Positions 24,743 through 59,859 of a DNA stretch of 64,000 nt are shown piece after piece. The stretch's first letter is position 1. Each line of letters begins with the position of its first letter. The notes beneath the pieces were generated by a model. The model worked only from the letters and a program-made list of their open reading frames with translations, searched no databases and was not told where the DNA came from. The position numbers and the translations under genes were made by a program. The stretch comes from Sphagnum compactum (lineage: Eukaryota), in the NCBI GenBank assembly GCA_965153455.1, contig OZ234493.1, positions 13,878,213 through 13,942,212 on the forward strand, in the 5' to 3' direction.

Positions 24743-24780
24743 GCTGACTCGATTGGTTTCCGTAGAAGGAAGGTCATACA

Positions 24781-26842
24781 ATGATGGCTGGATTAGAACT
24801 AGAACATCCACCAACAGGAAGACGTCTTGAGAGTTTGCAAGAGAAAGATGGACTTTTTATAGCTCTATTGCTTACCCTTTTGGCTCTTGTTGTGCACTTT
24901 GTCTTTTATAGAAGATTTCGGCACTTGCCTCCAGGACCATGGCCATGGCCTGTAGTTGGCAATTTGTTTCTATTGGGTAAATCTCCACATCAAGCGTTTG
25001 CACACTTGGCAAAGAAGTATGGGCCTCTCGTGTACCTTCGGCTGGGCTCTCGACACACAGTTATAGTGTCTTCTCCTGCGATGGCGAAGGAATTTCTCTT
25101 GACACATGATCATGTGTTTCAATATCGTCGACCCAGCACAATCACTGCGATTTTGAACAATGGTAAAAATATTGCACAATCAAGTGGTCCCTTGTGGCGG
25201 CAGTTGCGTAAGATTTGCATGACTGGGTTATTTTCTACCAAATGCATACATTCATTCCAAGCTGTGAGAATTAAAGAGATTAGGTCCACAATGAAAGACA
25301 TCAAAATTAAAGCGCAAGAGGGCAAGGTAGTGGACCTCGACTTTCAGCTGTCATTGCTTGCTACCAACATCATGACTGAAATGGCTTTCGGGAAGAGGTA
25401 AAAGAATTTCTTCCAAGTTACAACCCTCCTAGTATGGTCATTCAACAACTCTTGAATGCAAATTGTGGAGGTTACATGATGTTGGAAAACAGTTAGACCA
25501 ATTTTGGAGGGTACTCAAAGAAACCTTACAATTGTGATCAACATGATGTACCATAATCCTCTTCTCATGACTTTCTTTGCTATGTATAAGTGTTGCCACC
25601 ACTTTGTAGGGCTTGCAATGCATGATGCCTTTCTTCTTTGGCACCATCTTTGAAGTCATGCTTTACAATTTGATCATGCTTTGGTAAATTGATTAGGTAC
25701 TTTGGAGCAGATGAAAAAGGTGAGAAGGAAGCTCGTCATCTCAAACAAATTGTTGGTGATATCTTTGGTGCATTTGCCACTGTAATTATTGGTGACTATG
25801 TGCCTTCCTTGTGGTGGGTGAGCAAACTTCAGGGAGTTGAAGCTCCCTTGTATGACTTACGCAAAAGGATGAACCAAGTTGCTCAAGGAATACTTGATGA
25901 GCATAGACGGGACAATGCAACAACTGATCATCAAGATTCAACATACAATGATAAACCTAAAGACTTCATTGATGTGCTACTTTCTGAGCGTTTGGATGAT
26001 GGGTCTGGGAAACTTTCCGATGACACAATTCAGGCTGTTCTCTATGTATGGGAAACAATTTCTGCATTTCATCCACCCAAAGTTAATCATGAACAATGAG
26101 CTTTAAAAACTTGTTGTATGTTTTGTAGTTGATATCTTTTTCTTATAGCCATCCTAGCTAATAATTTAATCTAACATGATATAGTTATCTTCATACATGT
26201 GATGTGTTTTTGCAGGATCTATTGGCAGCTGGTACAGACACCACATCAGTCACCTTACAATGGGCAATGGCAGAGCTCATACGAAATCCAAAGCTTATGA
26301 AGCATGCTCAGGATGAGTTGGATACGGTTGTTGGAACTGATCGTGTGGTTGAGGAATCAGATCTCCAACACCTTCCTTATCTCCAAGCTATAATAAAAGA
26401 AACATTTCGTTTCCATCCTGCTGCTCCTTTCACACTTCCTCACATGTCACTGGAGTCTTGTCAAGTTGCAGGTTACTATCTGCCACCTAAGACTCGTGTG
26501 ATGGTGAACCTGTGGGCAATGGGCCGCAACCCTGATGTTTGGGAGAGACCCTTAGAATTTGACCCTGAGCGTTTCTTGGAACATCCTGAGATTGAGTGGA
26601 ATGGACGTAGCTTTGAACTCTTGCCATTTAGTAGTGGAAGGCGGGCCTGTCCAGGACAACCATTAGCAGAATTAGTAATTCAACTTGCCTTAGCACACCT
26701 GGTCCATAGCTTCAATTGGTCTCTTCCCAATCAACAAGAACCTCACACTCTTGACATGTCTGACAAATTTGGCCTAACTCTTCCAAGAGCACAACCATTA
26801 CATGCTATGGCACATCCTAGGTTGCCTACGCACCTCTACTAG
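24781..26842 (+). CDS. Cytochrome P450, A-type/CYP71 clan, 3 exons, 530 aa
   Basis: Exons 24781-25397, 25697-26045 and 26216-26842 (1593 nt, phases consistent). N-terminal TM helix, LPPGPWPWP hinge, AGTDTT I-helix, ETFR, PERF and heme motif FSSGRRACPG. Confidence 0.95.
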
Positions 26843-28060: not shown

Positions 28061-29599
28061 ATCTGGCAGTGAAATGGAATCGAGAGAAACCTTGCCTGTA
28101 GGGCATTAGATCATTACCTTCATGATAGGTAGGTATGTAGCCAGAGTGGTCCGTTGGACAATCGTATCAGTCGATATGCAGATATGTGTAGTGGTCTGCC
28201 CCTGCAATATCCTTCACAAGCCAATGCTGATGACCTCTCAACATATGTTTAACATACTAGCATACAGTAAGTTGAGAAAAAGAAAAGACTTAGATGCTTC
28301 CAATCCATTCAAAATACACTTCTAATTGGTGCAAACCAGCTGAACTTCTGCAATTTCATGAATAAACAAGCTTATGATATAATTGAAGGTGAAATTTAAT
28401 CCTGACTTCAACTACAAACTGTAACTTTCATGCCCCCCCTTCCCACCACTTCTGAACTTCCTCGGATTCAAGTCAGTCAGGGATACCCTGGTTAGACCAT
28501 TATAGCATATCAATTGGGACATAAAAGAGCTCTAGTGCAATAGAGGGGAGGACGATGAACCAGACCAGATTTGTGAAGTTCTGAGCTAGGCTTGATGATT
28601 TGCAGCTCCTTGCTTCCAGTTGCATCTGTCCATATTAAGAGCAGAAGAGAGCATACTGTGATGCAAAAAGCCCCTGAATGACCTCCTTTGTACCTTTACA
28701 TCGCCTCAACATCTTCAAGACATGGTATAGATGCATAAACAGTACAGATGCCGACCTTGAAGAATTTGTACAAGTAATTTATTGCAGGAACTGAAGAACA
28801 CAAGATAGAGATGAACCTCTATGACCTGACATGGGAGCCTGGAAACTAGCGAATTAGTGACTGGTATTGACAATAAGCAAGCTTGGATACACTTTGTTGA
28901 ATGCTATGGTATTAGATTACTATATGGAACAAGGTACAACCATGACAGCAAACCAGGGGCTTACTGTGTCTGGATTACTCTTCACCAAGTGTAATTATTT
29001 GTACATTGTACGAAGAATATCTAGGCCGACAAAGTTGCATCTCGATAGTCAGGCTGCTTCAAAGTTGATGATCTAAGATGGTCTTGGATTTCTAACTTAG
29101 GTCTCTGGTTTACAATTTGAGCTTCGAGTTCTCTGTAGATTGCAACCTCTGAACGTGGAAAAATATCCCAGGAAGACACCATCAGTATGCTCTGGTTTCA
29201 TTGACTGTACACAGACAAACTCTCCATGCTTGGCTTGATTGACTGGCTAAAGCAAAACCTTGCTAAGAAGGTGATGCTTCACATGATGTTACCTTGATGC
29301 TGGAGCCTCAACACCACAACCAGTCCTGGATCACCAAAATTTTGTTCTAAATGCCATGCAATAAGGATGCAAACAGCAGGGCATTTCTGTGACATAATTA
29401 GTATATGATATCTATATGCACATCTGAAAGTTTCCTGCACAACAGAAAAATCAAGATAGAATATTTTAGGCCAACAATCATTTTCTCAGGTTCTGCACTC
29501 AATCCAACATTTGCAAGTTTAAGCCGGTTGACATATTCTTCTAGATATTCTAGATAAATCTGCTAGAACTTCATCTAGGATAGAGATTGCAGACTTAGA

Positions 29600-30262
29600 G
29601 ATGCTTCAAATGTACCTATCTTGTTATTGCGGACTATCAAAAATTGGCAGTTGAGGTGCAGCTTCAACGTCAGTTGAGGTACTTCACTACCTGGAGTATT
29701 GTTGGTCACTATGAGTGGGTCTTCAGCTGTACACAGATTGGCAATATGCAGTACTTTTAGCATGCTTATCTTCCATGGCCCATTGGAGACAGTGGCATCA
29801 AGTGTCTCTTGGGCTGCTCCCTGCTTGATCATCTGCCGCACCCATCCAACCAGATTACCTCCATCAATGTCCTTGAAGTCCACTCCTGTTGGCTCCCTGC
29901 CAGTGAGCAGTTCTAGGAGTATCACACCATAGCTGTACACGTCTCCACAAGTGGTGGATCGCCAACTTTGTCCATATTCAGGAGGAATGTACCCAAATGT
30001 ACCTGCAATATCAGTGCTCATGACATGGGTCTCATATGCACTTATGAGTCGTGCAAGACCAAAGTCTGCTACTCGGGGTTCAAAATCAGCATCCGGCAAA
30101 ATGTTACTGGTCTTCACATCCCTGTTGCAGGAGGATGTGGGGGTATGAAACCATGGTGAAGGAAGTTGAGACCTCTTGCAGACCCCATGGCAATCTTGAA
30201 TCGTTTGCTCCAATCCAGAACCTCAACTGCATCTGCACGGTTCCCAAGCCACAGGTCAAAGG
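29600..30262 (-). pseudogene. EMS1: Truncated, frameshifted EMS1/EXS-type LRR receptor kinase fragment (kinase C-lobe only)
   Basis: FDLWLGNRADAVEVLDWSKRFKIAMGSARGLNFLHHGFIP, then a frameshift at about 30140, then RDVKTSNILPDADFEPRVADFGLARLISAYETHVMSTDIAGTFGYIPPEYGQSWRSTT.GDVYSYGVILLELLTG..GGNLVGWVRQMIK. The 5' end abuts dispersed repeat B. Confidence 0.85.
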
Positions 30263-33714: not shown

Positions 33715-35162
33715 GCCAGTTTCTACATAATGGGGGCATCAAATGGAAATTTTACAAAACGAAATAATTGGGACCCAAACTAGGTTTTCCACCAATTTTG
33801 GTGGCAAAATGAGTTTCATCCCCTCTTTCTTTTTTCCTGAGCACCTCCATTTCTGCTTCATATATTTTCACTGCTCCACCTGTACAAGTATTATAATTAC
33901 TCTCGAACCTTGTGCATTAAATGTTGAGTTTCAAAATTTCATACTGAGATTTAATAAAATTTCCTTACTTTGTGGATACCAGTGAAAGAGGGGTAAGGGG
34001 TGCAAGAGAGGGTGACTTTACGGACAACTTTATTGTGATATTGAGTTTCATCCTTGATTTAGTTTTATAAATTAACTTTGTGAATAATGAGGTTTAAAAT
34101 AGAATAGGGAAAAGGGCGTGAAAGGGGTATAGGGTCACTTTATAAACTTCTTTATTATATTCCATGAGATAAAATCTATTTACGATAGCCCTAACAAAGG
34201 GGATTTTTTTTTAATTTAAAAAAAAACCAATGACTTGACCTCATACAACATTGAGAACATATTATGATTACCCCTAAAGTCACCTTGTAATTGAACCCTA
34301 GTTTGACCTTCCAATACATACTTCATACCCAATTTGAGTGAGAAAACTAGTTTGGTAGGCTCTTCAACCTTAGGGTTTTATGTAAGTCGTGCCCAATTGG
34401 CCCCCAATCTGGACCCCAATTTTCACCTCATCCCCTTTTTTATCTGGATTTCTCATTTTGTGCCCAGTTTAGGTTAAACTTTGGCCTAGGAGCCCCAGTC
34501 TAGGGAACTTTTCAGATTATTACCTAAATTAAAAATATCCAGTGCAACTTCCTTATTGGGGTTTGAGGGAAAGAAAATACACAAAAGTCGCCATATTTTG
34601 AGGGAAAGAAAAGATTGAAAAGTCGCCAGATTTAGACAATGGATAATGAGTTCTAGTAAGGTCGTCAAAACTAGGCAGGAATCCAAAATATTTCGGCCAC
34701 TGTCCTCTCTCTGCCCTTTAGCCAAATTTGGCTCATTCCTCTTGTGTGGATGATCACCAGTCCACCTGCTTCAAAAAAAAAAACACCGAATACCATGATG
34801 CCTATAAATGCTAATAATATACTTAGCAATGAAAAAAACTGAGATAAAATGGCGAGTTCTCGCCCAGGGTTTTCAGTTCAATCCCCAATAATTACTAACT
34901 TCTTTTTTTCAAATACAAGTTAGAGAGGGAAGTAGAAAAATATTTAATGATCCTGCTATATTTTGATGACCACTTGAATTTTTTTCAAAAGAAATCCTTT
35001 CTACAAATGGCACTGCATTTTTTGGGTCCTTAAATGGAAAAAAATGCCAAAAAAAAAAGGAGAAAAAAATGATGCCCCCACCCCAACTTTGCACAAGAGG
35101 ACAAGAAAAAATTATTGACCATGGAATTTCACATAAATTGAATTTTTTTCAGTATCGTAATA

Positions 35163-36134
35163 CCTTGTCAATTTCAACACAATCTATATTTTTTTTTAAA
35201 TGTTGAAATATTCAAGTATTTGTTTGTTTGCAAAGATCAAAAATTTGTGAAGGAAGATTTTGAATCTTCCACAAATTATTTTTTTCCAATGAAAAAGTCA
35301 AAAATAATTAATTATTCCACAAACATCGGTTGAAGTTGCCAAGATACTATAGTAGCCCACTATGTTTTCACAACTACATCTATCTCTGAAGGAAGGTTGT
35401 TTGTTTGTTTTGTTTTGTACTTATGAGATCCATGGAACGGGGATGATTTAAATCGTGTTCCTGGTGTCTTTGGAAAACTCTGGAGGAGGAGGGGTGCATG
35501 GGCTTGGTATGCAAAAGTTATTGAATATTGAATGATTTTTTCACTGAAAATTGAATTAAATCATAGCTGAAAATTTTGAGGAACTGGAAAGTGCTGAAAA
35601 TTCAAATAAATTCCAAGAAACCAGGTTTTGGAAGGAAAAAACGATTGAGGACGTGGTAACCCTTGGGCCGGGCCCAACGGCACAGGCCACACACTAGTTC
35701 CATACTAATTCATAGTTCATGATCCTACAACTCACGAGACTCCTTGCCGCTGCCACCAGGATAGAATTCATCCGATGAAGGGATCAAAGATTGGGAAATT
35801 TTGGATGAAGCAATTACGTTTTTGTTTTGTGGGCCAGGATTAGAACCCACGCTCAGTTTTCGAGGCACCTTGGTCATATTGTTTTGAAGCTGCACTTTGG
35901 ATGCCTGCCAGCTTCCCTTGAGCCAGAACCACAGTCACAGTACTCGTGTGCAATTTCTGTAGCGGTTCACTGCACCCCACCACAAACTTAAAATTGTTGA
36001 ATTATGTAAAGTTTTTTTTAATTTTTTGCTTGTGAGGAAGAGCGTGTTCTAGCTGGGTGACAAGAAATCCTCTGATCAAGAGATCAGGAAAGGTCGGACG
36101 AGGATTTTCCTTTTTCGTCAGGGTACATGTCTAG
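35163..36134 (+). repeat. Local direct duplication, copy A (pairs with 38629-39742)
   Basis: Colinear similarity from AAATGTTGAAATATTCAAGTATTTG to TCAGGGTACA.GTCTAG, including the same Helitron at the same position. Confidence 0.9.
35379..35697 (+). mobile_element. Non-autonomous Helitron-like element, copy 2 (internally deleted, 319 bp)
   Basis: A|TCTATCTCTGAAGGAAGG...TTGGGCCGGGCCCAA (hairpin)...CACACTAG|T. Confidence 0.8.
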
Positions 36135-37639: not shown

Positions 37640-38625
37640 TGCACAAAAAGTATTTTGAAAAAGAAATACCTAAAATGCATTGTGTTGGGCATTTTATTGT
37701 GTTAATGATAACAAAGAAGTTAATGTAGCAATTCTTCAAATTATGCATTGTATTCTTTGTCACAATAATCCAATATTGAATGTAAATCCAAAAACTCAAG
37801 CCAGGAAAAGATTAATCATATATAGCACAACTAATGGCATAGCTACATTTAGGAAACATGTCAATTCACATCATTTTAATATTTGTTAAAATTTGGACAA
37901 AAAATTGAATTGTCCTTTTAGGCAAGATGAAAGAAAACCTTCCATAAAAAGACCAAACATTTCTTCTAACTCCATATCTAAGTTTTTTGCTACAAAAGAA
38001 CCTTTTAAAAAAGATGATGTATAATGCAAAAAAATTCTCGAAAATTTAAATCTCTTAATTGTTCAAAACCATCTTCTTTTACAATTTGTAGAAAGTAGTT
38101 GATTAAAAAGATTTAGTATGCATTTGAGTTCAAAAACTATTTTTGTTTCCATAAAATAATTTTCTAACGAACTATTGCCTGAATTAGTGGAAAAAAACTA
38201 AACAATCATATGTTTTACTAGCATTAATAGAATGTCATTTTGGAACTACAAGTTTTGATTTATGCATGTCAAAAGTTGGACATGATGTATTTTTGTGATT
38301 TATTTTTTAGGAGATGATTAGCAACAAAAACACATTACCTTTGTTCTGTTTGAGGCAATACATATTATTGAACAAACTTTGGCTACAAATTTGATAAAAT
38401 TGTTGGATAATTATGCATTAAGGTGAAAAATTATTGTTTATGTCAAGGATGAAGGATCTAATTTGAACACTATGACTATAGCCCTAAAAACAATTGTAAG
38501 TTGCGATATGTTGGGTTTGGAGGCAAGTTTCAGGGCACTTGTTTTGGGCATTCGTTTTCCAAGGCTTGCCAATATGCTACGAATAGAAGAAAAAGTTTGC
38601 AAAAACCTACGATATGTGTGAATAA
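37640..38625 (+). mobile_element. Degenerate hAT transposase relic with BED-type zinc finger, 3'-truncated
   Basis: CWAFYC..MHCILC..NGIATFRKHVNSHH (BED finger), SFDLCMSK.GHD, YVKDEGSNLNTM and CFGHSFSKACQYA, spread over several frames with stops. Confidence 0.75.
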
Positions 38626-38628
38626 AAT

Positions 38629-39742
38629 CTTGGCAGTTCCAACACAAATTATATTATTTTTAAAAATGTTGAAATATTCAAGTATTTGTTTATTTGCAGA
38701 CATCAAAACTTTGTGAACGAAAGAGTTGAATTTTCAACAAATTATTTTTTTCGAATGAAAAATTCAAATTTAATTAATTATCCCACAAACATATGATGAA
38801 GTTGGCAAGATACTACAGTAGCCTGCTATGTGTTCACAACTACATCTATCTATGAAGGAAGGTTGTTTGTTTTGTTTTGTAGTTATGAGATCCACCAAAC
38901 TGGGTGCCTCAGATGGTATTCTTGATGTTGTTGGACAGCTCTTGATGAGGGGGTGCATGGGCTTGGTTCCTTGGCGTTTTTTGAACTGGGCATGCAAAAG
39001 TTTTTTAATATTAAATGATTTCTTCACTGAAAATTAAATTAAATTGTAGCCGGAGGAAGTGGAATGTGCCTTTGGTGTTGTTGGAAAGATCGTGATGAGC
39101 AGTATTTAATGGAATTTATTTGGTAAGATTTGGATTCAACATGTGGGAGATGTGATGTTTAAGTCCTTTCTGCCACTGAAAATTCAAATAAATTCCGAAA
39201 AGCAAGGTTTTGCAAGGAAAAAATGGTTGAGGATGTGGTAACCCTTCGGCCGGGCCCAACCGCACAGTCCACACACTAGTTCCATACTAATTTATAGTTC
39301 ATGATCCTACAACTCATGAGACTCAGTGCCCCTGCCACCAGAATAGAATTCATCTGATGAAGGGATGAAGGATTGGAAAATCTTGGATGAAAACATTATG
39401 TTTTTGTTTTGTGGGCCAGCTTTAGAACCCACGCGCACTTTTGGAGTCACCTTTGTCATATTGGTTGGGAAGTGATCTGAAGCTGCACTTTTTGGATGCC
39501 ACGAAATTCATGCCAGATTCCCTTGGGCCAGAACCACAATCACAATACTCGTGTGCCACGTCTGTAGCGGTTCACTGCAGCCCCCTACAGACTTAGAATT
39601 GTTGAATTATGTCAAGTTTTTTTCATTTTTTGCATGTGAGGAACAGCGTGCGTGTTCTAGCTGGGTGACAAGAAATCCTCTGATCAAGGAATCGCGAAAG
39701 GTCGAACCACGATTTTCCTTTGTCGTCAGGGTACAGGTCTAG
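38629..39742 (+). repeat. Local direct duplication, copy B
   Basis: Matches 35163-36134 and ends about 460 bp upstream of the knottin precursor ATG. Confidence 0.9.
38845..39279 (+). mobile_element. Non-autonomous Helitron-like element, copy 3 (435 bp)
   Basis: A|TCTATCTATGAAGGAAGG...GC-rich subterminal hairpin region...CACACTAG|T. Confidence 0.8.
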
Positions 39743-40057
39743 GGTTTAAATAATGAATCATAAAGAACTAGTAATTTGCAAAAAGAATGTAAACCGGGTT
39801 GTGAAAATCGATTGTTATTATATATGCAAGAATCACCATATTTGAGAGGCGGTTGAGTTTGGAAAAAATAAAAATCTTGAGAACCTCTTCGCTTCTCACA
39901 AGCCCAAATATATATAGATAGATAGATTGGAAAAATGATCAGGTTCTCACAAAAGTGAGAACCGCCCCAACGCTGGTGTAGACGTATTTCCTTTGCTGAG
40001 AGTGAAGTGGGTGTACAGTAGTAACTATTCGGTGCAGGTGTGCTCCCCATGTGTGAA

Positions 40058-40063
40058 TATAAA
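40058..40063 (+). promoter_or_regulatory. Putative TATA box of the knottin precursor gene
   Basis: TATAAA about 145 bp upstream of ATG 40203, followed by a CT-rich 5'UTR-like stretch. AATAAA at 40637-40642 lies downstream of the stop. Confidence 0.55.
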
Positions 40064-40202
40064 CGCACAAGTTCTCACAGTCTCCTCACAATTTCTCTCA
40101 ATCTCTTTGCCGGTCGCGTCCGCCCTTCTGTCCATTCATCCGGTATACCGCTTGCGAGTGTTCTGGTTTGAGTGCTTGTTAAGAGAGAACTGTTTGGCGA
40201 TC

Positions 40203-40541
40203 ATGGCGATGACAACTTTCAAGGTTTCCACTCCTGTGCTTCATCTACTAGCCATTGCTTGCATCATGCTAGTGGTGGTGCAGGTGACTGAGGCCGCTCG
40301 TGAGCTTGACGACGGCGTTGGAGATGTACTAGTGAATCGTGAACACGTGGCATTTGCCCACACGAAGGCCGGGCTCACCGTTTTCCAGGCAGCTGCCTGC
40401 GAGCTTTTGCGCTTGCCCTGTGCCGTCCAGTCTTCTAACGATGCCAACTGCGGTCCAGCTGGTGGTTATTGCTTCTTCCCGCAGGATTGCTGCAGTGGAA
40501 AGTGCAATTATAATGGCATGCTTCCTCCTACGTGTGGCTAG
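40203..40541 (+). CDS. Secreted cysteine-rich precursor (signal + propeptide + C-terminal inhibitor cystine knot/knottin), 112 aa
   Basis: Hydrophobic signal (VLHLLAIACIMLVVVQVTEA|AR), then a pro-region, then C-terminal CGPAGGYCFFPQDCCSGKCNYNGMLPPTCG = CX6CX5CCX3CX9C. GC-rich coding-like composition, with TATA and polyA-like signals. Confidence 0.82.
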   Translation: MAMTTFKVSTPVLHLLAIACIMLVVVQVTEAARELDDGVGDVLVNREHVAFAHTKAGLTVFQAAACELLRLPCAVQSSNDANCGPAGGYCFFPQDCCSGKCNYNGMLPPTCG

Positions 40542-42477
40542 GACGCGGTCGCAGAACCTGAGAAGATCGTTAAGATCAGTGAATCTGACAATCGTTGTTT
40601 GTGGAGTTCATGTGTGCTTGCTTCTGTTTTTAAGCGAATAAACTCCCTGCAATCTGCCTTGCGATAGTGTTTCTTGTGCGGTGGAATGATGTAACACCAG
40701 AACGATAGGTATATAGTTCTGGTATATGGGAAGTCTATAAATCACAGTTATCGTCAGCTATTGTGCTCCCTAGCTCTGTTGGTCCACTTCTTGTATCATA
40801 TGTGACCGATACAATGTGGTGTGTGGAGATATATAATATGCGCATATATAGGCGCCCCAGTGTTTTCTTTATTTTGTCAATTTTGTGTTGTAGCTGAAGT
40901 GGCCATGATCCACAGGAAGATTCATCCAACTTTGGCTACAAGCTAATTTATATTATGAAAGTAAAAGTTTTAAGACATCTTCGTTGTTCTGGCTACCTGC
41001 TTGAACCATGCATAGAAATTTCACAAAGTTTCTGAAATTTTGGTTGAAGTCTGGCCATTGAGAATCAAAAAAACACACGATTTTAACACTTTTAATTTTG
41101 AGTACATCTTTTTGGCTATGAGTGCTCTTGTTTTATGCTGACAGGATGGCAAATTCGTGGTTGATTGAGCTACATATCCAAACTTAGCACAAATGCATTT
41201 GCGTTCGTGTCTGTGCTCTTTTTGAATTGCTGCTTGAACAGACAAAACCATGGAAAAGTGGTTTGATATTCAATGGCAAATTTCAACCGGAAAAATATGT
41301 TTTAGACTTTTCATGGAAAAACAATGCCCCAAATTCGCCAGATTTAGAAAAATAAAAGTTTTCAGATTTCCAGATTCTTATGATAAGTTGCACTACGTAG
41401 CTAAGAATATAGATAAGTTGTTTGTTTTCTTCCTACTCTCATATCTAGTCTGTAGCCAAATCTGGCTAAATCATCTCATCGGCGATCGTTACTTCAAAAT
41501 TGGAAAAAAAAACCCTGCCTGTTTCTTCTAGATGGAAGCCGATTCTTAGCCTAGATGCTTTGGCAAATTGGTGTAACTTCTTTTTTTCAGCAGGTTTTAA
41601 GTATGTGTGTCACATTTGTCAGCGCCTATACATGTTTAAATCACAATTCATGGTGGAACCAAAAAAACTGATCACCAAGGGCATGATTATCAAGGGGATT
41701 TATTCTATTATCAATCAAATTTCAACATGGGTAACTCTTTTTGTAAGAAGCAGGTTCAATATGCAGATATAAATAGAAAACTAAATGGCTACTAAGCAAC
41801 TAAATGGTTTACGGTTTGTACACAGGCCAGAGCTGAATTTACAACCTATCTACCTTTAGAAACAAACCCAACCCACATTTTTGCAGGCGAGGGACAAAAG
41901 AGAAAGAAAGCAAATGAGCTAACTGCCATGGTTAACTAGGGGACAGGAACCAACAGAAAACTGTTTCCTGACCAATTATCATCCATCCATCCATCTATCC
42001 ATCCATTCATGGTGCGCTCGTGGGTGCTCGTTTACTCTGGCAGAAAGGAAGCGCCTTCACTGTGTGTGTGTGTGTCTCTCTCTCGTTGCCACGTAACTAC
42101 AGAGGTGAAGGGGGAAGAACAACCCATCTTTGCTGCTCCTTCCCTCGCTCGCGCCAACACCTCAGTTTCCCAGGTCAGTGCACCGCATTACAGATCATCG
42201 ATCACCTCCCAGCTCTTGGTGCCAGTTTCTCGCTGTTGGGTAGTCCTAATAAACAAGCAAAGAGTTTTGGAGTTTTGATGTTTAGATATAGGGGTTTGTT
42301 TTGTGAATTGTGTGTTTTTTTCTGGGATCACCCATGCTATTGATTTCTAGATCTGTGTTTTTCGAGATGGGTTTTGGTGGCGGAATCTATGGGGAGGAGA
42401 AAACTTGTTGGGGACTGACTGACTGACTGACTTGCTGACTGACGTTGCATGGTGGGGGAGGATAGGGTGTCAGGACA

Positions 42478-43577: not shown

Positions 43578-46500
43578 TTAATGGACCACTTTTGTGCAAA
43601 TACTATGTTTAATACCAAGTTGAAACTAGGTCATCCCAGTTGCACTGTGTGGAAGAATTCTATGGGGCAAAGAAGCATTATTTCTCTTTATGGTCAGCAA
43701 CTTAGGGGCTTTCTGATAGATCTTGAGGCAAAAACTATTAGGATCCTGATCAGAACCTGAAAGGTTTTCTGATGGGTCTTGCTGGTGTCAGAAATATATT
43801 AGGGTTTAAGGTTTAGGCTGTTGTATGGAGAATCTTTCATCGTTAAACTAGTTGCAGACTGAGCTTTGAGGGTTGACTGAGGAGGCTCAAGGTCATTAGA
43901 CACCATTTCTGATGCTTTTATTTCAACCACTTTGGGGACTGCAAACCAGTGATGACATTTATGGGATTAAAAATAAAAAATGCTCACTTGAATGCAAAAT
44001 CTTGTTGTAGCAACCAAGCATGGGTTCTGAGATACCTAACCTGTTTTGCTTCACAAATGGTTGTAGCCTTATCCATTGTGTGGCTTTTCTAATGTAAGGT
44101 AGAACCAATTAACCCTTAAAATGCCTAGGGTTTCCAAGTGTAGGAGGAGACGTTTCAGGCCACAATTGTATGGTCATCTAGTATTGTTAGTTGTAGTAAT
44201 TAGTTGTGGGGGTGTGTCTGAAGTTATTTTATTTTTATTTTTTTTCCCTATGTGACACAGGAATACCTGAGAAAACACTTAGCCTAAAAGAACCCTCACC
44301 CGTAGTAGCAACACGGTTTGAAATAGAGATGGCTTGCACTAGTTGCAACACCACCAACACTGTCTACCTGTAAAACGAATGTAAAATACAAAAACAAGGG
44401 CCTCCAAAGCCCTTCACGCTCCATGCCATGTTGGCACATCCATCAAGAAGCCTCATTCAAGAAGGTCAAGACCCCAATGTGGCTGCTAGTTCACCCTAGC
44501 TTCTTCTTTCATACACCTAAAGGTTTACAATTGAGACGTGAGAGAATCATGGTTGGCATCTTGCAGCACCAGATCACCACCCCCCCCCCCCCCCCCAAAA
44601 CTAAGGAATTTACAAAGTCACACATAAAAACACGCTAAGTCATTGCAAGTATTGGTCAACTGACCTCTTCACACCATGCGTGGTACCACAGACAATAATC
44701 AAACTAACAGTATTAGGGTCATGAAAAACTGGTCAAACCTTGGGGGGGATTGGGCGCAGCCTTTTTTATGCTTGATACACATAGCCAAAAAGCTATATTA
44801 AAAAATTCAAAGTGCTAAATTCAATTATTTTTTGGAGATTTTCAATAACCAGAATTTCAACCTAAATTTAAGAAAAATCACCAGATTTCTATACTTTGTT
44901 CAATGACGTAACCAAGAATATAGAAAGGTTTCTTAAAAATTTTACTTTCATGTTAGTATTGATCCTTTGGGCATTGACATATCATAATCCAAAGTAATGT
45001 ACAAGCCATTATATTCCTAGCAGAAGCCATGTGTTTGACTCTCACTGAAGCCAATCTATGAGCAGAAGCAAGTGTTTGATGTGTGGAAATTTATACACCA
45101 TGAAAAAGGTCATGTGAGAATGTTGATACCACAATTCCGAATACTAAATTGTAACAATGATATGGTCCAAAATCTGGTATTATGAGGGCCCATCCTGTGT
45201 GTTATATTTATTACTAATATTATAGGTATTATGTGGGACTTGCTTGCATACTGTTTGACAAAAATGTGTAGCCCAATTGGAACCACCACTAATAATAATT
45301 TCCATGAATTCAGTCCACTAGGGCTCTTAGTTCTCAGTTTAGAAATTAAAGATAGCTTAATATCATTAAAATAAAATCAAAAATCTGCTTCACCTCTACT
45401 ATTTCAAGTGGATGTTATCCAATGGTGATGTAAAGGTAATCTTTTGGATGATTTCATGCAGGCTTTTTTCAGGGATGTCTCTGGTCTCTACACCAACCAA
45501 ACAATCTTACAATGGGGATGCCTTAGCTATGACATTCAAGTTTTTATCAAGAGGGCCCAAATGGTTGAAATTGTTAAAACCTCAATTTTTTCTAAACTCG
45601 GTGTGGCCACATGTGTAGCCAAGCAACATGCTTATGAATGTGGACAAAGCCATTTTACAAGTTATAAGGTGCCTCTTGAAGTTAATTTGATCTAGTTCCG
45701 GACGATAGATAATAACAGCCAAGTTCAATGAATGAGGTATGGTGGATGTGGAAACACAATGCAAGATGCACATTCCATTGTGCACCGCTTCTTGGTTTTT
45801 GCAAGACTTGTTGGGTCAGGGTTTAGGGTTTGTTTTTCCAAATTGAAGACCCTTTGGTTTTGGGTTTAGGGAACATTTTCAAAAATAAAACTCGATGGTT
45901 TTGAGAGAAAATCCAAGAGAAACGATAAAGAACAACATAAAGAATAGCTACCCAACAACAATCTCCACCCACATGGGCCTATTTGGGCCTCTATTCAACA
46001 TAGGGAACAACTTAGAAAGCATCACAAAAATGTTTCTGTAAACGTCAATTTAATGCTACAATCAGGGATGCCTCTTAAAGCTTGAGGCTAGGACATAGGA
46101 TCGTAAGACCATAGAACTTTAAAACCCTAAACCCAATCCAAATTTAGGACCTTGGCACCTGCTTAAACCTACGACACTCGAACCTTGTAAAAGACTCATA
46201 AGACTCATCAGGTCCAGTTCTTGCCCAGGTTCGGGTCTAGGTCCACTTGGTGAGTTTGTGTCCATGTAGAATTATTGGGTCTAGTTCTTGGCTGGTCTCA
46301 GGTCTATGTAGACTTGCTGGGTCTGGTTCTTAGACCCGTATATAAACCTGAACGTGGCCAACACTTGTATATTCCCAATTTTGAATATGAACAAAGATGA
46401 ACATGCAATTTAGAGAATATCAATCAACAAAAATCCTAGTTGGACACATCATGCCAGAATTAGATATTACATGTCACTCATATAAATAATATCGCACGAC

Positions 46501-47920: not shown

Positions 47921-50900
47921 TTCATTCAAGCCCTTAACCTTCTAATCCTAATTATCAATTTATTAAGGTTCGCCCTAATTCATGGATGATGAACATAGGT
48001 CCCATATGTAATTATAACAAACAATTTATAGTGGAAACAATGTTATAATTACAACCATTTTGGTTTAATTAATGCATATTTTACTAAATTTTGTTTACCT
48101 AATTTATTTATGGAATAGACATTATAATACATCTTTCCATATAATTATTATAAATATGTACTATTGGATTATGGTTTAGGTTTAAGGTTGGAACACATAA
48201 ATTAGTTAGCAAGTTTTTTACAAATTTATAATAATTAACTTAAATTAGGCTAAATTGGGGGGTGGGGGGGGGGATTTTAGGGTTTTAATATGTGTGAAAT
48301 AATACAATTTCATTCTATATCTTTTACAAAGAGAGTGCAAAAAAAATAGTTTGGAGAGATCACGCAAAGGGTAAAAAACATTTTTTTTTTTTGTTCTTTT
48401 ACAAAATTTATTTTACTGTTTTTGAAGATTAAAGGTTTTTTCAATGAATAAAGTTTTAAAATTTTGTTTCTAAATTTTTTCCTATTTTTTTAATAAAAAA
48501 TTTGCATTATATAATTTGTATAATTTGTATAGTTTTTTGGGTTTAGGGCAAATTTCACTAGGATCATTTTTTGTTAGGGTTTGATAGTTAAGGTTGTAAT
48601 ATGGTTATGGCAAAATATCATTTGGATTTTTAGGGTTATGCCTTATGGTTTTATGTTTACGAATTTGGTTCATATATTTCAAGGCTTAAAGTTTATACTC
48701 TAGACATTGCTCATTGTATTGGTTTTTTATTTTATCACCTGTTTAGATCTATAACATAATTATGAATCTCCTTTATTTTTATACGTTCCATAGTTGTTAA
48801 AGTTCAATATTTCGTAACCCACTTTTGTTTAAATGTAATACCCATATCATATTGTGATAATTCATTAACCATGAAACATAGAAATATTTTAAAAATACTT
48901 GATCCCCCTCCAATACATCATGAAATTCATGTTTTCAAATTTATTTATTCACCTTACAGTATGATTTAACATACATAAAAATGAACACAATACAAAATTG
49001 GCCACATTGATGATACAAGGGGTTAGGGTTTAATGTAAAATTTACTACTTAATGTTCAAATTATGGTTTAGGTTTAAACTTTAGGACATATAAATTAATT
49101 AAAAAAAAATTACGAATCTTAATTAATTAAAATAAATCTAGGGTGCATTTTGGGCGAAATTTTTAGGGCTTAAACATATGTAAAACAATGCAATGTCATT
49201 TTATATTTTTTTAACGAAAGTGAAAGAACTGAACTTGGAAATTGATATACATTTTTTTGTGTTTCTTTAAATGCAATACCCCCATGTCAGGTCGTTTCAA
49301 AATAACCAATATGTAGTTTGGGTGACCTTTCCATGAAAACCAAAGCTTATATGCAATATTTGCATGCAAATTCATTTTGAAATAATCCATAGGTGATTTA
49401 TTTAGACAACCTTAGGTGAATAATCAACCTAAAATGCAATATCCAAATGTAAAGTCACTTGAAAATAAGTGGTTTGGGTACCCAATATATGTTTTTTTTA
49501 ATATTTAAATTAATTTTATAACAATTAATTATCTTGAATAATTATAAAAAATAATGATTTGAATAACATATCACCATAAAAAATGTCATAAAAATAATAA
49601 ATTAAATATCAAATTATTATTTTGATTTTTAAATCTAAATTTTAATTATCTGAACAATTAAGGTTCAACCAAATCATCAATTAATTTACATTTACAAATA
49701 TATGGTTGTTTAAATATGGTAATCAGTCATTTACATTATTTAAAATATTTTTTTATTAATTCCTTAATTATGACATTATTTGTTGATAGTTAAATTAGAT
49801 TATTATGTCATATGAGTCCCACAAATATTATAATGGAAACCTGTATGTAAATAATGCAAAAGGTGTTAAAAATCAATAATTATTTATGGACCTACATGCG
49901 GGTATTGCGATGGATGTAAAAAAACCAACAACCTCAAATATAATGTAACAGCTTCCCAACATGCTGATGAACAATATAACTTACAATTTACAACTCACAC
50001 CTTACACCCTAAAAAAGTTGATACCCATACCATGGCATCAATGCTCATAAATAGTTGTGTATGAATATAGATCATGGTACCTAAAATGTTGTTACCAGTC
50101 AAATATGATATGAATCGAAATATCCAATTTTCACATACCATGGCAATATGGTTTCAACCGCAGTACAATGAGCAAACCATACCCATCTAGTCAGATATTT
50201 TCATACTCATATTGATACCCAGGTTCATATATGAATACAACCTATATAACTAGTCCAACATTGGTCAAAACCCAAAGTTGATTGAACAAAAAAAACTATA
50301 GGTGGTAATTGGTGTTATTAGGACCTATTCCCGAGCCTATTCCCGATCAAAAATGGTGTTGTTTTGTATTATGAAAATAGCCCATTCCACCCAAGAACAC
50401 ATCTAACCAAGTTTGTTTTTCTTAGGTTGTAACAAGTTCTATTAGAACCTGTTTCCAACGTGTAATAGATACTATAGGAAGGATTCATCCATTCTACCTT
50501 GGAACACATCAAGTCAGGTCATTCTATTAAATGGCATTGATTAATGTTTTCAAGTTAGGGTCTGTTCCAATTTGTAATTTGTACTTTGGTGTTGTTTTAG
50601 AGTTGATTCACATCACAAGCAGAATGGTGAAACCAAAAGTGAAACCGATAATCAACGGTTATAGAATTTTTTTAAAAAACCCCTTCAAAAGTATTGGAGT
50701 AAGACACCAAAACCAATTACATACTATGGAACAAGCCCATTCCATGACCTTAGGAAGGTGACGAGCTTAGTATGGCAACTGAAATTCCATTTCCAAATAA
50801 AATCATTAGGAAATTATTATGTGGTGATAAATTTAATTATATATCTAAACAAGATGCAAGAATTAGATTTTTTTGAAATGCCCATTTATTGTCTTAGATG

Positions 50901-53900
50901 AAATATTATGGGTTATAAGGTGCCCTCCATCAACACTAGAAAAAATCCAACCACATGTCTCTTTATGTTATATTGGTAGTTGGTTATTTATCAATCATCC
51001 ATAAAGCATTTTTTTTTGTTTTGAAACACATGAATTAGAGAAGAAATTTTTTAATTTGGCACCTTTCTGTTATTATTCCACATGCTCAAACATTTGCACA
51101 ACATTATATACCATAGCACCCAAATGGATTTGACATTAATTTAATTAATTTTTTTAATTGTTAAAATGTCTTCAATTTTTTTGAATTTTTTAAAAACTTG
51201 AAAAATTTCAAGTATCCATTGTTGAAAGTTCATAAACCTAATGGGGCCACCACAATCCTTCTTTGATAGGTAGGTATGAGTTGTAATGCCTCTTCTACAT
51301 GCATGAGGAGGTGGGACGAAGAGCTTTTTCTCACACCAACTTGTCCTATTCTTGCACATTGTAATTAAACATTCTTACCTCAACATAGAAACAACCTGCA
51401 TCACCATGGCCGGAGTAGTATTTCCAAATTCATGGAGTTGGAGTGTAAATTTCAAAAGTAAAAAGAGGATAAAGAAAATTTTTCCCTTAGACAAAATAGA
51501 TGTTTATTGTTTTGAACAATTCTTGTTTTGCAACTAAGATGGAGGAGTGTGAGAGAATCATTCAAAGAAGCAACATTTCAAATTTTGCACACTCTTATTA
51601 TGACACTGCAACATGATGACAATATTGCAAACATTCAACACAATTCAAGAATTATCTCATCATTTGACGAGCAACCATAAATCCTCATTTTTTCCCCTTG
51701 GCTTTAAGGATCATACAAAAGAACCTTAAGGGAGCACAAGCTTTGAAGTAGTTCCAACAATGTTGTCATTGAATACATTTTGTTTTGGTTTCATCAACAA
51801 AGTTCTTTCTTAATGCAATTGCTCCATTTTCTGACTTTGGATTGTTTGAAGAAAGTTTCTTGAAAAAGATTTATATTTTGTCAAGTTGAATCATCATTTG
51901 AGGGCATTTGAAAGCAAGCATAGTTGTGCAACCTTTGGTAAGGCTTTAGCAAATTTGACAACCACACATTGTGAAATAATGTGTTTTCTAGTGCTTATCT
52001 AATATCCTTTTTCTCCATGTTTTCAAGTCTTGCAATTTATGTTTCATTGGTATAATGTTGAAGTCTTGGTAACATGTATAACTATTCTCTTAACTACTTG
52101 TGCAATCCAAGTTGAAAAGGGTCAAAACAAAACCCTTAAATCCAAAATCCTAAGCACAAAACCTACACTTTTATTTAATGTTGCATTAGATTTGTTATTG
52201 GGGGAAAAGTTAGGTTTGACCATGAGCTGAAAAGAAGAAAGATGGTGATGTGATGTGACAAGATTGTCCCTTGCAAACAATGAAGAGAAAATCCAAAACC
52301 ACAATGCTAAAATGAAAGGCAAATCTTTGGTATATTCTTTTATTCATGTTTTTTTTTCTATTCACAAAACTTGTGATGTTTTGAATATTGTTATATAGGA
52401 CCTCACATAGTGATTAATGTTTTTATGCTCAAAATTGCACAATGATTTTAAATATAATCTTATGTTTCTAGTTTTTAGAATGGGGTGATTGCAAGCTAGA
52501 GGGTCTATAAAATCGTGTACAAGGGCAACTATTTTCGCACCCCTTCAAGTTCAAATGCTTAGATAATAAATTTGTGCACACATATATTCAATTTCAATAC
52601 AATAAACAACTCTAGATATTAAACGAGAATATATATATATATATATGATTAAATACAATCTTTGGGGGACTTTTTTGTCTATAAACTAGAAGTGAAACTA
52701 TCTTGCAAAATTATGCATATGGATTCACTAAATTAAAAAAGTCCTCAATGAACAACATTTATATTTTTCTCAAAATTCAATGACATGTTGATGAACCATA
52801 GATGGAAGTTTCCATGCCATTTTGTATCATGAAATGTATTTTAATGGACTTTTGAAAGTCGCAAAATGCACCAATTATTTCCATTTTAAAATGAAAATGA
52901 AACCTTTATTATTATTATTTTCATGAAAAATGATTATATACATAAGTAAAATAGTGACCTAGGTCAATTTTTAAATATCAGATGTGGTTTAGGCATGGAT
53001 AACAATGTCACATTTGTTGCAATCAAAATACACTATGAAAATGTATTTTTATGGAAACCTCAAATGTCATTTTTGGTCCATTATAGCTTGTAGTTACTCA
53101 ATGGTGCAATTCAATTCACATTTAATGCCCTAGAAATTCACTCTTCAACATGAGGTTGGTTTTCAACATTTGTCTTTTGTACTTGTAGTCGAACTACAAA
53201 TTAATCATCATTAAAGATGAAATTTCAAGGTGCAATGCCCAATTTGATGTAAGAATTATGAAATTCAGATATGAAGAAAACACTATTAAAATTCACAATT
53301 TATTTGACCAGGAAAATCAATAGAAAAGAACCCATTTTAAACAACCACCAAAAAGTTCATCCAATCATTTTGGACGCGTCATTTTGTACACATCTAGCAT
53401 GACCAAGATGGTTTATTTGACTAGGCCTAAGGTGGTGTTTTTGACTAGTCATTTTGACCAGTGACTATTTGACTACTAGTCAAATTGAACATTATTAGCC
53501 CATTTAAAGTGAACGTTAATCAACAAAATGTGTTGATTGGTCAATGGGCAATCAACATTTGAAATGTTGGGATCAAAGTTTGAACCTTGTTCTCCTAAAT
53601 GGGACACCCTAAACTTTGCCATCCAACTACCACTTTTGACCTATTGCTTATGAAGCCAAATACTAAAGTTAATGGACATTGTATCAATTTGTGCTAAAAA
53701 TCATCAACTTTGAAATGTGATTTCTTTTTTATATTTTGCTCAAATGAAACAAATGAATTTTCAAATTTGGAATTTTTCATAAATGTACACATTTGTAATA
53801 AATGGAAACCAAAAATTTCAAATCATTTTGATTAAAAAATGTTTGAATGTTATTGTTTAGTAACAAGTCAAACAGAAAATTTTCATCCCATACTTTGGAC

Positions 53901-55339
53901 ATGTAACTATATATACGTAAATATGTATTTTTATAATAAAATTTGGACTACTATTTTTAATCAAAAATAAATAAATTTTATGACTTAATTTTTTCAAAGC
54001 TCAATCACTTTATATTAATTCTTCGTAGAATACTTATAAATTTCTTCAATAACATGTCATTAATATTACAAAATTGCACCATGTTACATCCCAACATGTA
54101 TTATATTTATTGAACAATATATATATAATCGTATGAATACATGTTGAAATGTATGTATATAACAAGTTTCATAATAATAATAATAATAACTCATAATAAC
54201 TACAAAAATTAACTTTAATTATCTATTTCAATCAATTTTTAATATTTCAATATTATGTCAATTCAATTATAGAGAAATTTTGTGTTTGAATATTTCAATA
54301 ATATTACAATATATTTAGAAAGTTACAAAAAATTATTGTCATTCAATACATTCAAATGTTTTTGTGGTTTAATAATTTCAACTTTTTATATAATTCCACA
54401 AATTATTAGACCTAAATATCTTTTCAAATAATAATATAATTGCTAAAATCATAAATAAGTTTTTAAACAAAAATTGTAATTAAAAAATTTCACAAAAATT
54501 TTATATAATTAATTTCAAGACGATAATGTAACTAAATCATTATAAAAATAATTATAAGTACATAATTTGAAATATATATATAATTAAATAATTACATAAA
54601 TTTAATGTAATTGAATTACAAACTACAATATTTCATAAAATAATCAAATAATTACAGTAATTTTTTATGAATAAATAATTTTCGAAATAAGAAAATATCA
54701 AATAATAGTTTTTGTTTTTGAAAAAATTGATTCAATATCTACAATAAAATATTATAAAATATTATAAAATAATTTCAGAAAAATTACTATAATGAAAGAA
54801 AATTTCTAAACTTATGTAATTAAGTACATTAAAAAACTATTGTAACTAATACTTTCAAAAAACATCAATTAATAAATAACATGATAATTATAATTAATTC
54901 TAATAATAAATTCTAATTCTAAAAACCTTAACATCACATCAATTGAAGATTTTGAAAACTAATATTTATAACATTTTTCCAAATAAAAATGTAAACAACA
55001 AATTGATTAAATAAACTTTGGTTTACATAATAATGTAATATGTCATATTGTTACTAATTGACATAATATGTAGGTTATAATAAATAATTTTATAGATGAA
55101 AGATCTTAAATATCAACTAATAACTAATTATTAAAAGATCAAGATTGAAATTTTACTTTTAATAATATCGAAACAAATATTAAAAATAATATGTTTTAGT
55201 ATGTACCAAAATAAACATTAAAAATGTTTGTTTGAACCAAATTTGGTATTAAACCAAAATGATGAAACATACATTATTAACATTGTATATGTTTAATTTA
55301 CCCAACACAAGACTTACGGCACCTAGTTAGTATACACAA

Positions 55340-55560
55340 TATTTATCCATTTTGCCGAGGCCAAGTGCCATTTTGACCAATGAGACCCCTAGGGTACTTA
55401 CATAATATACGTATCCCTTGTCACCTTTGATTAAGCCAAATGCCATTTTGACCAACAAAACCCATAGGGTACATAAGTAGTATAGGTACCCCTCGTCACT
55501 TTTGACTAAATCAAATGTCATTTCGACTGGGATATTCATTTTTAAGTACATTTTGACTAA
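55340..55560 (+). repeat. Degenerate tandem repeat with a period of about 75 bp
   Basis: CCAAGTGCCATTTTGACC, CCAAATGCCATTTTGACC and TCAAATGTCATTTCGAC at 55361, 55436 and 55511. Confidence 0.65.
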
Positions 55561-58500: not shown

Positions 58501-59859
58501 GGATAAAAAAATACAAATATTCATTAACAATTTTGACTAAGTGTGACTCGAATTGTAGCTATTTTATTCTACCTTCATTGTATTATTTCATTAGATTACT
58601 TAAAGGAAGTAAACAATTATATTTTTCATTGAAAGGATTGTTAATTTGGTCTATCATTAGAAAAATTCTTGTCAATTTTAACCCTATGTTTGCAACTAGT
58701 GTGTGATTAGTGTTCAAATTAATTCATTTTGCAAATACACTTGTGGCAATCCTATGTCACTATAGTTGCAAGTGCTTGTAATTATGTATGCGACTACATG
58801 CTGATGAATCTAGATTTTAGTTGTACATGTGACTACAATTTGTCACTCATCGGGGCTAGGCTACGTAATTTGGACATGTGGCTCATGTGACTATTTATAA
58901 TATAACCACAAATGTAATTGCAAAGGTCAAGTTCTACATTGGCTACATGGGGACCAAGGTTCATGTGACACTTATGTTCATTCATGATAGTGAATAAGAA
59001 AATAGATTGTAATAACAAGGGTTTGCAATTGTTAGTGCAACTATGTGCCACCTGATTTTCTTGTGAATGATTGTTTTGATGACATTTGTGTTAGGTGACT
59101 AAAACATTTTGAAATCATAAATATCTATTACGACTCAAATCCAATCACTAATTGAGTGATTATTTTTTAAATTTCTTTTGGTGAAATCCTTCTTCAAATT
59201 ATATTATAAGAAACACACATGTTGTTTGCATCTATAATTCATTTTTCATTCTCATGAACTTGGAATTATTATTTTTCACCATGAGTTATTTCTAATTTAT
59301 AGGAACTTGTTGTAAAAGGCAAATAATCATATTTTTGCAAACTTTGGTTGTGAATTTTTAAATGCAAGATTCTTGAACACAAAGGTGATATTAATTAACT
59401 TCTATTCTAGTAAAAAAAGTTGCACATTTAAGCAAACTCTTCAACATGTTTATAGTTTGGATTTGACTACAATTTTTTTTCAATTTTTAATATTGGGATT
59501 TCTCGATTTCATGAAAATATTGAATTTTAAATTTTCAAATTTGAAATTCTAACAATGTTTTTGTATGAGACATGATAAATCTCTTTGATTGATAATTTTA
59601 TAAGACTTTTTATATATGTTGAGTCTCTATATACAAAATAAATTGGCTCCTCATGGAAGATTTTTTTTTTTTTTTTTTTGGGTTATTTTCTTATTAGCAT
59701 CTTACAAAATGTTAGGTCATAACCTTGAATTGACTTTGGAAATCATGTGATTGTAATTAGAATCGCTTTGTATGTTAGATTTCACAATTTAGAAAGTTGA
59801 AACTTGAAAGATGGTCAAATAAATGCAAATGATTGATTTTCTTTAAGTTTTTTGTCAAT

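Follow-up and report, generated by a model that had tools for sequence, protein, structure and literature searches.

A hypervariable family of predicted secreted knottin precursors in the mosses Sphagnum and Ceratodon

Results

A single-exon gene encodes a predicted prepropeptide with a terminal cystine-knot-like domain

We analysed a stretch of 64 kb of Sphagnum compactum DNA (the window) that carries, on its plus strand, an open reading frame for a putative knottin precursor at 40203-40541. The frame starts with an ATG at 40203, ends with a TAG stop codon at 40539-40541 and spans 112 codons, which encode 112 amino acids in a single reading frame without requiring an intron. It forms part of a larger open frame (39993-40541, plus strand) that includes sequence upstream of the ATG. 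The gene is present once in the window.

The encoded protein can be divided into three parts. Residues 1-31 (40203-40295) constitute a predicted signal peptide with cleavage between VTEA and AREL, as judged from hydropathy, the residues at the cleavage site and conservation within the family. Its h-region (residues 10-28) has a mean Kyte-Doolittle hydropathy of 2.3, the predicted cleavage before A32 places threonine at -3 and alanine at -1, and the signal-peptide region is strongly conserved across an alignment of 36 family proteins. Residues 32-82 (40296-40448) form an acidic pro-region with a pI of 5.0. This region contains the motifs ARELDDG and FQAAAC-ELLRLP-C, both of which are common to homologs from the moss Ceratodon, and the second motif includes a cysteine pair of its own, C66-ELLRLP-C73 (40398-40421). 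The terminal 30 residues (83-112; 40449-40538) form a knottin, i.e., inhibitor-cystine-knot-like, domain, an assignment based on cysteine pattern, predicted fold and hypervariability. The domain reads C83-X6-C90-X5-C96C97-X3-C101-X9-C111-G112 and includes the motif CCSGKC; its six cysteines thereby follow the order C-C-CC-C-C that a knottin is expected to show within ~30-40 residues. With a net charge of 0 and a pI of 5.8, the knot core is nearly neutral. The preliminary description of this locus had listed the signal peptide, the pro-region pair CELLRLPC, the terminal CX6CX5CCX3CX9C domain with CCSGKC and a nearly neutral mature domain, all of which we recovered.

All 36 aligned family proteins retain C83, C90, C96, C97 and C111, while C101, C66 and C73 are kept in at least 90% of them. 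Since the reading frame and the six cysteines recur throughout the family, 40203-40541 is not a chance open reading frame.

Gene structure and neighborhood

Upstream of the gene we found a TATA-like box, TATAAA, at 40058-40063 (plus strand) within AATATAAAC; an RNA contig begins ~40 nt further downstream. Its ATAAA core is common to most of 22 aligned loci; it is absent from locus L027, and the sequence of L015 stops short of the region. From its sequence, we regard the box as a putative promoter element. The probable 5′ UTR (40101-40202) begins where a metatranscriptome contig, found in runs X1 and X2 and preceded by adaptor letters, starts at 40101. The 3′ UTR (40542-40735, plus strand), delineated by alignment, low diversity and RNA contigs, is conserved and contains an AATAAA signal at 40637-40642.

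The gene is carried by a duplication unit of ~2.8 kb (38844-41620, plus strand) recognized by its matches in related loci. The unit is single in the 64-kb window. In six related loci (L005, L007, L009, L012, L030 and L043), it recurs in head-to-tail copies spaced ~2.7 kb apart: the match of five of them to the window ends at ~41608-41620 and restarts at ~38844-38849, and L007 carries two genes 2697 bp apart.

The surroundings contain several further elements. An interspersed repeat of ~1.1 kb (38623-39742) lies directly upstream of the promoter of the knottin gene. It recurs at 35158-36134 and, inverted, at 31104-30676 with 78-85% identity, accompanies the knottin gene in many related loci and may represent either a transposon or a piece of a former array unit. 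Downstream of the gene, an inverted repeat of ~175 nt with 74% identity (40955-41123 and 44777-44951) is inverted in many related loci too. An open frame at 13761-14816 (plus strand) belongs to a Mutator-like element, encoding a ZSWIM-type RNaseH-like domain in addition to a MULE transposase domain (E 7e-24). A cytochrome P450 gene at 24766-26839 (plus strand) consists of three open frames that look like three exons and correspond to positions 1-161, 166-266 and 268-456 of the Pfam p450 profile. An open frame at 29578-30222 (minus strand) encodes a partial protein kinase domain (E 5e-16). The region from 48001 to 64000 is very AT-rich, with a G+C content of 0.22-0.33 compared to 0.35-0.45 in the middle of the window.

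The family is transcribed

A transcript was one of three checks named in the preliminary description, alongside homologs conserving the six cysteines and a knotted predicted fold. In three moss or plant metatranscriptome runs, contigs with at least 96% identity and high word depth, which is a poor measure of abundance, covered 40101-40447 and 40550-40735. X1 and X2 contain identical contigs at identical depths and thus probably represent a single data set, which leaves about two samples behind the RNA evidence. A poly-A run labeled with the same species (X24) yielded 0 reads in the ~12% of it that was covered, a portion too small to count for or against transcription. The same runs contained no RNA contigs over 39800-40086, a region that is equally conserved in DNA and thus serves as an internal silent control. 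They also contained none over 40456-40537, the variable cassette of the window's own copy. The family is therefore transcribed, as seen through its conserved parts; the expected transcript was found for the family, while the variable part of this particular copy was left uncovered.

The terminal domain is predicted to adopt a knottin fold

In an AlphaFold model of the full-length protein, the pro-region was of low confidence and the last 32 residues reached a pLDDT of 79-85. Modeling the last 34 residues together with 19 family sequences gave a pLDDT of 84.3. When the PDB was searched with this model, Foldseek found 21 matches at E≤10, of which none reached E≤0.001. Spinach SOTI-III ranked first, and omega-atracotoxin-Hv1, Aps III and maurocalcin were also among the best, all at E≥0.1 and with TM scores of 0.55-0.71 for the first three; Aps III reached 0.71/0.65 at an r.m.s.d. 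of 1.8 Å. An independent comparison with VIA-align yielded 31 of 48,161 representative chains at Z≥2, with Aps III at the best Z of 3.9. SOTI-III ranked third (Z 3.6, r.m.s.d. 1.9 over 30 residues, 40% identity). Judging from their titles, we take 28 of these 31 chains to be small disulfide-rich venom toxins or cystine-knot peptides, among them the plant peptides SOTI-III, bidentatide, Ep-AMP1 and a tomato peptide; the three exceptions were LEAP-2, colipase and draxin. Scores this weak are expected from a model of 34 residues, and the list of matches is nonetheless specific. A sequence-profile search of the PDB with the knot domain pointed in the same direction, with Ado1 at 1.5e-4, SOTI-III at 2.9e-4 and atracotoxin at 4.9e-4; PAFP-S (1dkc) followed at 0.95. 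A knottin fold is thus well supported by the modeling, as had been proposed, with matches almost exclusively to inhibitor-cystine-knot peptides, and the expected disulfide bonds would be C83-C97, C90-C101 and C96-C111, following the I-IV, II-V and III-VI pattern of knottins, whose third bond threads the ring.

Membership of any named family is not well supported. In Pfam, every match of the full-length protein fell below the curated cut-off. The best was STIG1 (PF04885) with 19.7 versus 24.1 bits (E 0.0012; profile positions 23-65 of 85), and UPF0506 scored 17.1 versus 23.2 bits. The Conotoxin profile (PF02950) gave 10.9 versus 25.1 bits, covering only positions 44-70 of 75; the knot domain alone raised this to 16.5 bits, still under the cut-off, and 17 of 19 knot domains touched the profile at E≤1. 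Similarly, the knot domain scored 16.2 bits for omega-atracotoxin (PF06357; cut-off 22) and 14.6 bits for Spider insecticidal peptide (PF08091; cut-off 21). Other family members reached E-values of 1.2e-4 and 2.2e-5 for these two profiles, respectively, and one protein cluster (P0099) has a precomputed PF06357 label. The profile of trypsin inhibitors 1, 2 and 3 (PF17983) was touched by a single one of the 19 members at E 0.23. The nearest clusters in the Protein Atlas, to be taken as leads only with scores of at most 0.83, were spider and cone-snail toxin precursors and a cyclotide precursor.

The family occurs in two deeply separated moss classes

A word-indexed protein search identified 65 protein clusters at E≤1 among 73 candidates. 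The closest named protein, of 112 amino acids and 98% identity, comes from Sphagnum compactum, and all other named matches belong to Sphagnum as well (S. jensenii, S. troendelagicum, S. fallax and S. balticum), which bears out the seed-free plant deduced in the preliminary description. The remaining matches were JGI and ENA metagenome genes. Many metagenome members are 150-177 residues long only because gene callers included the open frame upstream of the ATG. A cluster from S. troendelagicum (P0038) bears the automatic UniRef label 'WAP domain-containing protein'; our Pfam searches showed no WAP match.

Among 240 pattern-matched JGI metagenome stretches, 57 encode a relative. On translation, 32 of these 57 loci proved to be intact single-knot genes, and L028 and L029 are probably intact too, starting at the third codon as in P0040. 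Seven genes are cut by contig ends, and ~12 loci (L030, L038-L040, L045-L048, L050, L054, L055 and L057) carry frameshifts or early stops, several of these disrupted copies being one locus sampled repeatedly. Four loci encode precursors with two knot domains (L031, at 3001-3453; L032, at 879-1331; L036 and L042) separated by a three-residue linker, and some of them have lost a cysteine. The shortness of these linkers bears on whether and where the pro-region might be removed, as does a conserved SSND-x-N motif before the first knot cysteine. We had considered this motif as a processing site for an Asn-specific endopeptidase and rejected it, as it is absent from the Ceratodon homologs.

Searching 1.84 billion representatives with a HMMER profile built from 36 proteins gave 33 matches at E≤0.001. 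Outside Sphagnum and peat metagenomes, the full architecture was found in two Ceratodon purpureus proteins and two Logan-contig proteins (P0080, P0086, P0078 and P0090), which have in common a signal peptide, A-R-x-L-D-D-G, QAAAC-x6-C and a CX6CX5-6CCSGxC...C end. A second group of matches, from Diptera, a mite, Phyllosticta and a bacterial-looking protein, was confined to the knot domain, present as repeats; by their sequences, these matches appear to reflect a widespread scaffold. The sand-fly and mosquito proteins (P0075-P0077, P0079, P0081 and P0083) and the mite protein (P0082) are polyproteins with four to seven knottin repeats, the Phyllosticta protein (P0087) has knot repeats flanked by Lys-Arg, and the bacterial-looking secreted protein matched by the knot-domain profile (P0085) has a twin-arginine-like leader.

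A combined Sphagnum and Ceratodon profile, with which 8000 candidates of the word-indexed search were scored, yielded 87 matches at E≤0.01 and added seven named Ceratodon paralogs; no further named plant appeared among these candidates. A viral origin, for which baculoviruses had been a lead, found no support in the viral contigs: none of their 59 pattern matches encodes a relative.

We thus define a moss knottin-precursor family by a signal peptide, an A-R-x-L-D-D-G-type motif, QAAAC-x6-C and a C-terminal CX6CX5-7CCSxxC...C. The window's protein has all four of these features in common with the Sphagnum and Ceratodon members. The family is found in two deeply separated moss classes and, as far as databases in which small open reading frames are often unannotated show, its sequences appear restricted to mosses.

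Fixed scaffold and variable loops

The six cysteines were invariant in all 19 knot-domain sequences, so that homologs conserving them, as anticipated, do exist. Across 83 distinct knot cores, loop 1 always consists of six residues. Loop 2 has 5-7 residues, loop 4 has 3-4, and loop 5, which is often proline-rich, ranges from 5 to 20. The sequence CCS is present in 80 cores and CCSG in 59. The net charge of the cores peaks at 0 (37 of 83) and ranges from -6 to +3, i.e., most are neutral or acidic.

The pro-region cysteine pair is kept in 39 of 56 distinct motif segments, an alignment-based count in which eight segments are fragments misaligned to the signal peptide. Both cysteines are gone in four segments (S..S in three, S..Y in one) and one is gone in five; in one of these five, P0078, a cysteine is shifted five residues upstream. 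The joint loss, together with the intermediate L003 in the same clade, suggests that the two cysteines pair with each other, so C66 and C73 probably form a small disulfide loop. The paralogs of Ceratodon have near-identical prepro parts and differ in their knot domains, and one Ceratodon precursor (P0112) contains three knot domains, again with linkers of about three residues.

The knot domain is a hypervariable cassette

To locate variation along the gene, we aligned 22 loci from -180 to +300 and determined mean pairwise diversity in windows of 30 nt. Diversity was 0.07-0.21 over 40023-40442, rose to 0.34, 0.33 and 0.54 in the windows of 40443-40532, was 0.26 across the stop codon and returned to 0.09-0.16 in the 3′ UTR. 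Nei-Gojobori means over 325 pairs from 26 distinct coding sequences showed the same partition: pS and pN were 0.14 and 0.10 in the signal peptide, 0.13 and 0.13 in the pro-region and 0.38 and 0.42 in the knot domain, next to differences of 0.15 and 0.12 in the 5′ and 3′ UTRs.

Codon models (GY+F1X4, IQ-TREE) were then fitted, with the caveat that all rates derive from short regions and mix paralogs and orthologs from several Sphagnum species. For the prepro part, omega was 1.24 and not different from 1 (p = 0.14), at a tree length of 3.1 substitutions per codon. The whole knot domain gave an omega of 1.53 and a tree length of 15.1. Its well-aligned non-cysteine codons reached an omega of 1.80 and a tree length of 19.3; this omega exceeded 1 (2ΔlnL 11.35, p = 7.5e-4), bearing in mind that it stems from 25 codon columns in a recombining family with uncertain loop alignment.

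Individual pairs illustrate the pattern. Between L013 and L034, which have equal loop lengths, pS and pN were 0.09 and 0.37 in the knot core and 0.06 and 0.03 in the prepro part; between L008 and the window's gene, again with equal loop lengths, they were 0.27 and 0.45 as compared to 0.06 and 0.03. L001 and L008 have 3′ UTRs identical over 150 nt and a knot-domain pN of 0.50. Where knot types differed (17 pairs), the knot domain had a synonymous divergence of 0.31, as compared to 0.10 for the prepro part and 0.07-0.11 for the UTRs; where they were similar (11 pairs), it had 0.15, as compared to 0.06 for the prepro part.

Identical flanks combined with a tandem organization suggest that the flanks were homogenized by gene conversion or unequal exchange while selection diversified the cassette. 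Judging from the sequences, diversifying selection on the knot cassette of ~100 nt is the most likely reading, and gene conversion or unequal crossing-over has probably homogenized the flanks. Targeted hypermutation or a locally raised mutation rate could account for the fact that even similar knot types show elevated synonymous divergence. We do not favor hypermutation as the only source of the cassette, because some pairs combine identical 3′ UTRs with very different knot domains.

The prepro omega of 1.24 and the ~12 disrupted loci out of 57 also suggest that part of the family may be decaying. Both would be in keeping with a neutral passenger, i.e., a reading frame that was amplified along with the ~2.8-kb unit or a transposon-associated segment and now decays, the apparent conservation of its flanks being due to the youth of the copies; the interspersed repeat upstream of the gene and the MULE transposase within the window fit such a history. 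We consider it improbable, since the six cysteines and the length of loop 1 stayed fixed in 83 cores despite ~19 substitutions per codon elsewhere, the omega of the knot codons is significantly above 1 and not equal to it, Sphagnum and Ceratodon have retained common prepro motifs, and family RNA is present.

Discussion

The moss precursors resemble several known systems without being firmly assignable to any of them. The O-superfamily of Conus (framework VI/VII) likewise combines a signal, a pro-region and a C-terminal C-C-CC-C-C mature peptide. Conus precursors pair a conserved leader with a hypervariable mature part in which synonymous and non-synonymous change are both raised; the moss family also has a conserved leader and a hypervariable knot part in which both pS and pN are raised. 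It differs in its host, a plant instead of a mollusc, and in the cysteine pair of its pro-region. Because only the cysteine region matches the Conotoxin model, the prepro parts are unrelated, which argues for convergence and against membership. The conotoxin likeness put forward in the preliminary description thus applies to how the precursors are built and how they evolve. It does not extend to membership, as the Pfam score is below the cut-off and limited to the cysteine region.

Mirabilis-type knottins such as SOTI-III are closer in host, being plant peptides with the same cysteine framework and a CCSG-x-C motif. Mj-AMP and PAFP-S belong to this type as well. These knottins come from Caryophyllales. 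The moss precursors carry a conserved pro-region of ~50 residues, and the moss cores are mostly neutral in contrast to the strongly basic Mj-AMP type. Among the ICK toxins of spiders and assassin bugs are the closest match in structure, Aps III, and the closest by sequence profile, Ado1. As animal venom peptides, these toxins derive from other precursors, and their likeness to the moss peptides is limited to the knot scaffold; the activity of the moss peptides is not inferable from it.

The NCR and other defensin-like (DEFL) peptides of legumes form large, lineage-specific, clustered families of secreted cysteine-rich peptides in which the mature part diversifies behind a conserved leader, and by analogy they are a possible functional counterpart of the moss knottins. 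They have a defensin-like fold with four or six cysteines without a CC doublet. Their genes, which are found in angiosperms, usually consist of two exons, unlike the single-exon moss gene, and our searches found no sequence similarity between them and the moss family.

We consider it probable that the gene is a functional Sphagnum gene for a secreted prepropeptide, that it belongs to a moss-restricted family and that this family provides a diversifying repertoire of knottins for defense. Its signal peptide would take the prepropeptide into the ER, from where secretion is presumed. The conserved acidic pro-region would follow with its own cysteine pair as a small disulfide loop, and three disulfides would hold the C-terminal 30 residues in an inhibitor cystine knot. 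Arranged in part in tandem units of ~2.7 kb, the genes would keep promoter, UTRs and prepro part alike through gene conversion or unequal crossing-over, while the cassette of ~100 nt diversifies around fixed cysteines, a fixed loop-1 length and the CCS(G) motif. The variable loops of such extracellular target-binding peptides could then track changing targets, and defense might be exerted through enzyme inhibition or through antimicrobial or anti-grazer action. We favor defense because of the omega above 1, the size and tandem arrays of the family, its closeness to SOTI-III-type knottins and its abundant RNA in bulk moss. The mostly neutral or acidic cores are unlike classical cationic antimicrobial peptides; their neutral charge argues against a membrane-lytic peptide of that kind and fits an inhibitor or a ligand, as put forward in the preliminary description.

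A ligand role could also be endogenous. The peptides might bind receptors of the moss itself, e.g., in reproduction or self/non-self recognition, similar to the cysteine-rich peptides of the EPF, STIG1 or SCR type in flowering plants. STIG1 is the best Pfam match, albeit one that misses the membership threshold, fast evolution with omega above 1 is also typical of reproductive proteins, and the peptides are neutral. However, 83 different cores, a loop 5 of 5-20 residues and double or triple domains are ill-suited to a receptor-ligand pair, and family RNA is found in bulk field moss samples, so we regard endogenous signaling as unlikely.

Slightly less unlikely is a role in managing the microbiome. 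Ceratodon purpureus is not known to keep symbionts of the kind considered here. Sphagnum houses diazotrophs and methanotrophs, according to two reports (PMC8941135, PMC10896819). In an NCR-like manner, the peptides might enter hyaline cells or the water film on the moss surface and there keep diazotrophic cyanobacteria, methanotrophs and other residents in check instead of killing pathogens. A large, lineage-specific, tandem family of secreted cysteine-rich peptides does resemble, by analogy, the logic of NCR and defensin-like families. Metatranscriptomes of field moss contain abundant RNA of the family, as far as word depth can tell, and the mostly neutral or anionic peptides are closer to the non-cationic NCR classes than to lytic peptides. 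Against this stands the family of Ceratodon purpureus, which expanded in the same mode, and we found no literature linking Sphagnum peptides to symbiosis. Defense remains our preferred reading of the repertoire.

Knottins are known from a few flowering-plant groups, and large hypervariable families of secreted peptides from angiosperms (NCR/DEFL, cyclotides) and animal venoms. Full-text searches over main texts and few subscription journals yielded no account of this family or of any other moss knottins, although a large cysteine-motif survey may list them; the earlier suggestion of an undescribed family accords with this. The main text of a survey of 1267 transcriptomes mentions neither knottins nor mosses (PMC7168108). 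A 2024 preprint on moss secreted peptides states that lineage-specific peptide families are so far found only in angiosperms (10.1101/2024.05.13.593875). Scaffold and evolutionary mode are each known from elsewhere; what is new is to find both in one moss-restricted family that has a conserved pro-domain of its own. A moss knottin family that expanded independently in Sphagnum and Ceratodon would extend arms-race gene families to bryophytes. It would also offer a clean system for weighing gene conversion against focal hypermutation and make an ecologically dominant plant a source of dozens of stable, naturally occurring mini-protein scaffolds.

More speculatively, and with about the same small likelihood as we give to the NCR-like role, the family could amount to a venom-like combinatorial peptide library that mosses evolved by themselves, a tandem array in which gene conversion keeps promoter, leader and 3′ UTR uniform and selection diversifies the cassette. 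Sphagnum would employ it, much as legumes employ NCR peptides, to shape the diazotrophs, methanotrophs and fungi in and on its hyaline cells. If true, this would be the first such lineage-specific peptide family among bryophytes, and plants would have their own counterpart to the evolution of conotoxins, in a genus whose microbiome matters for carbon and nitrogen cycling in peatlands.
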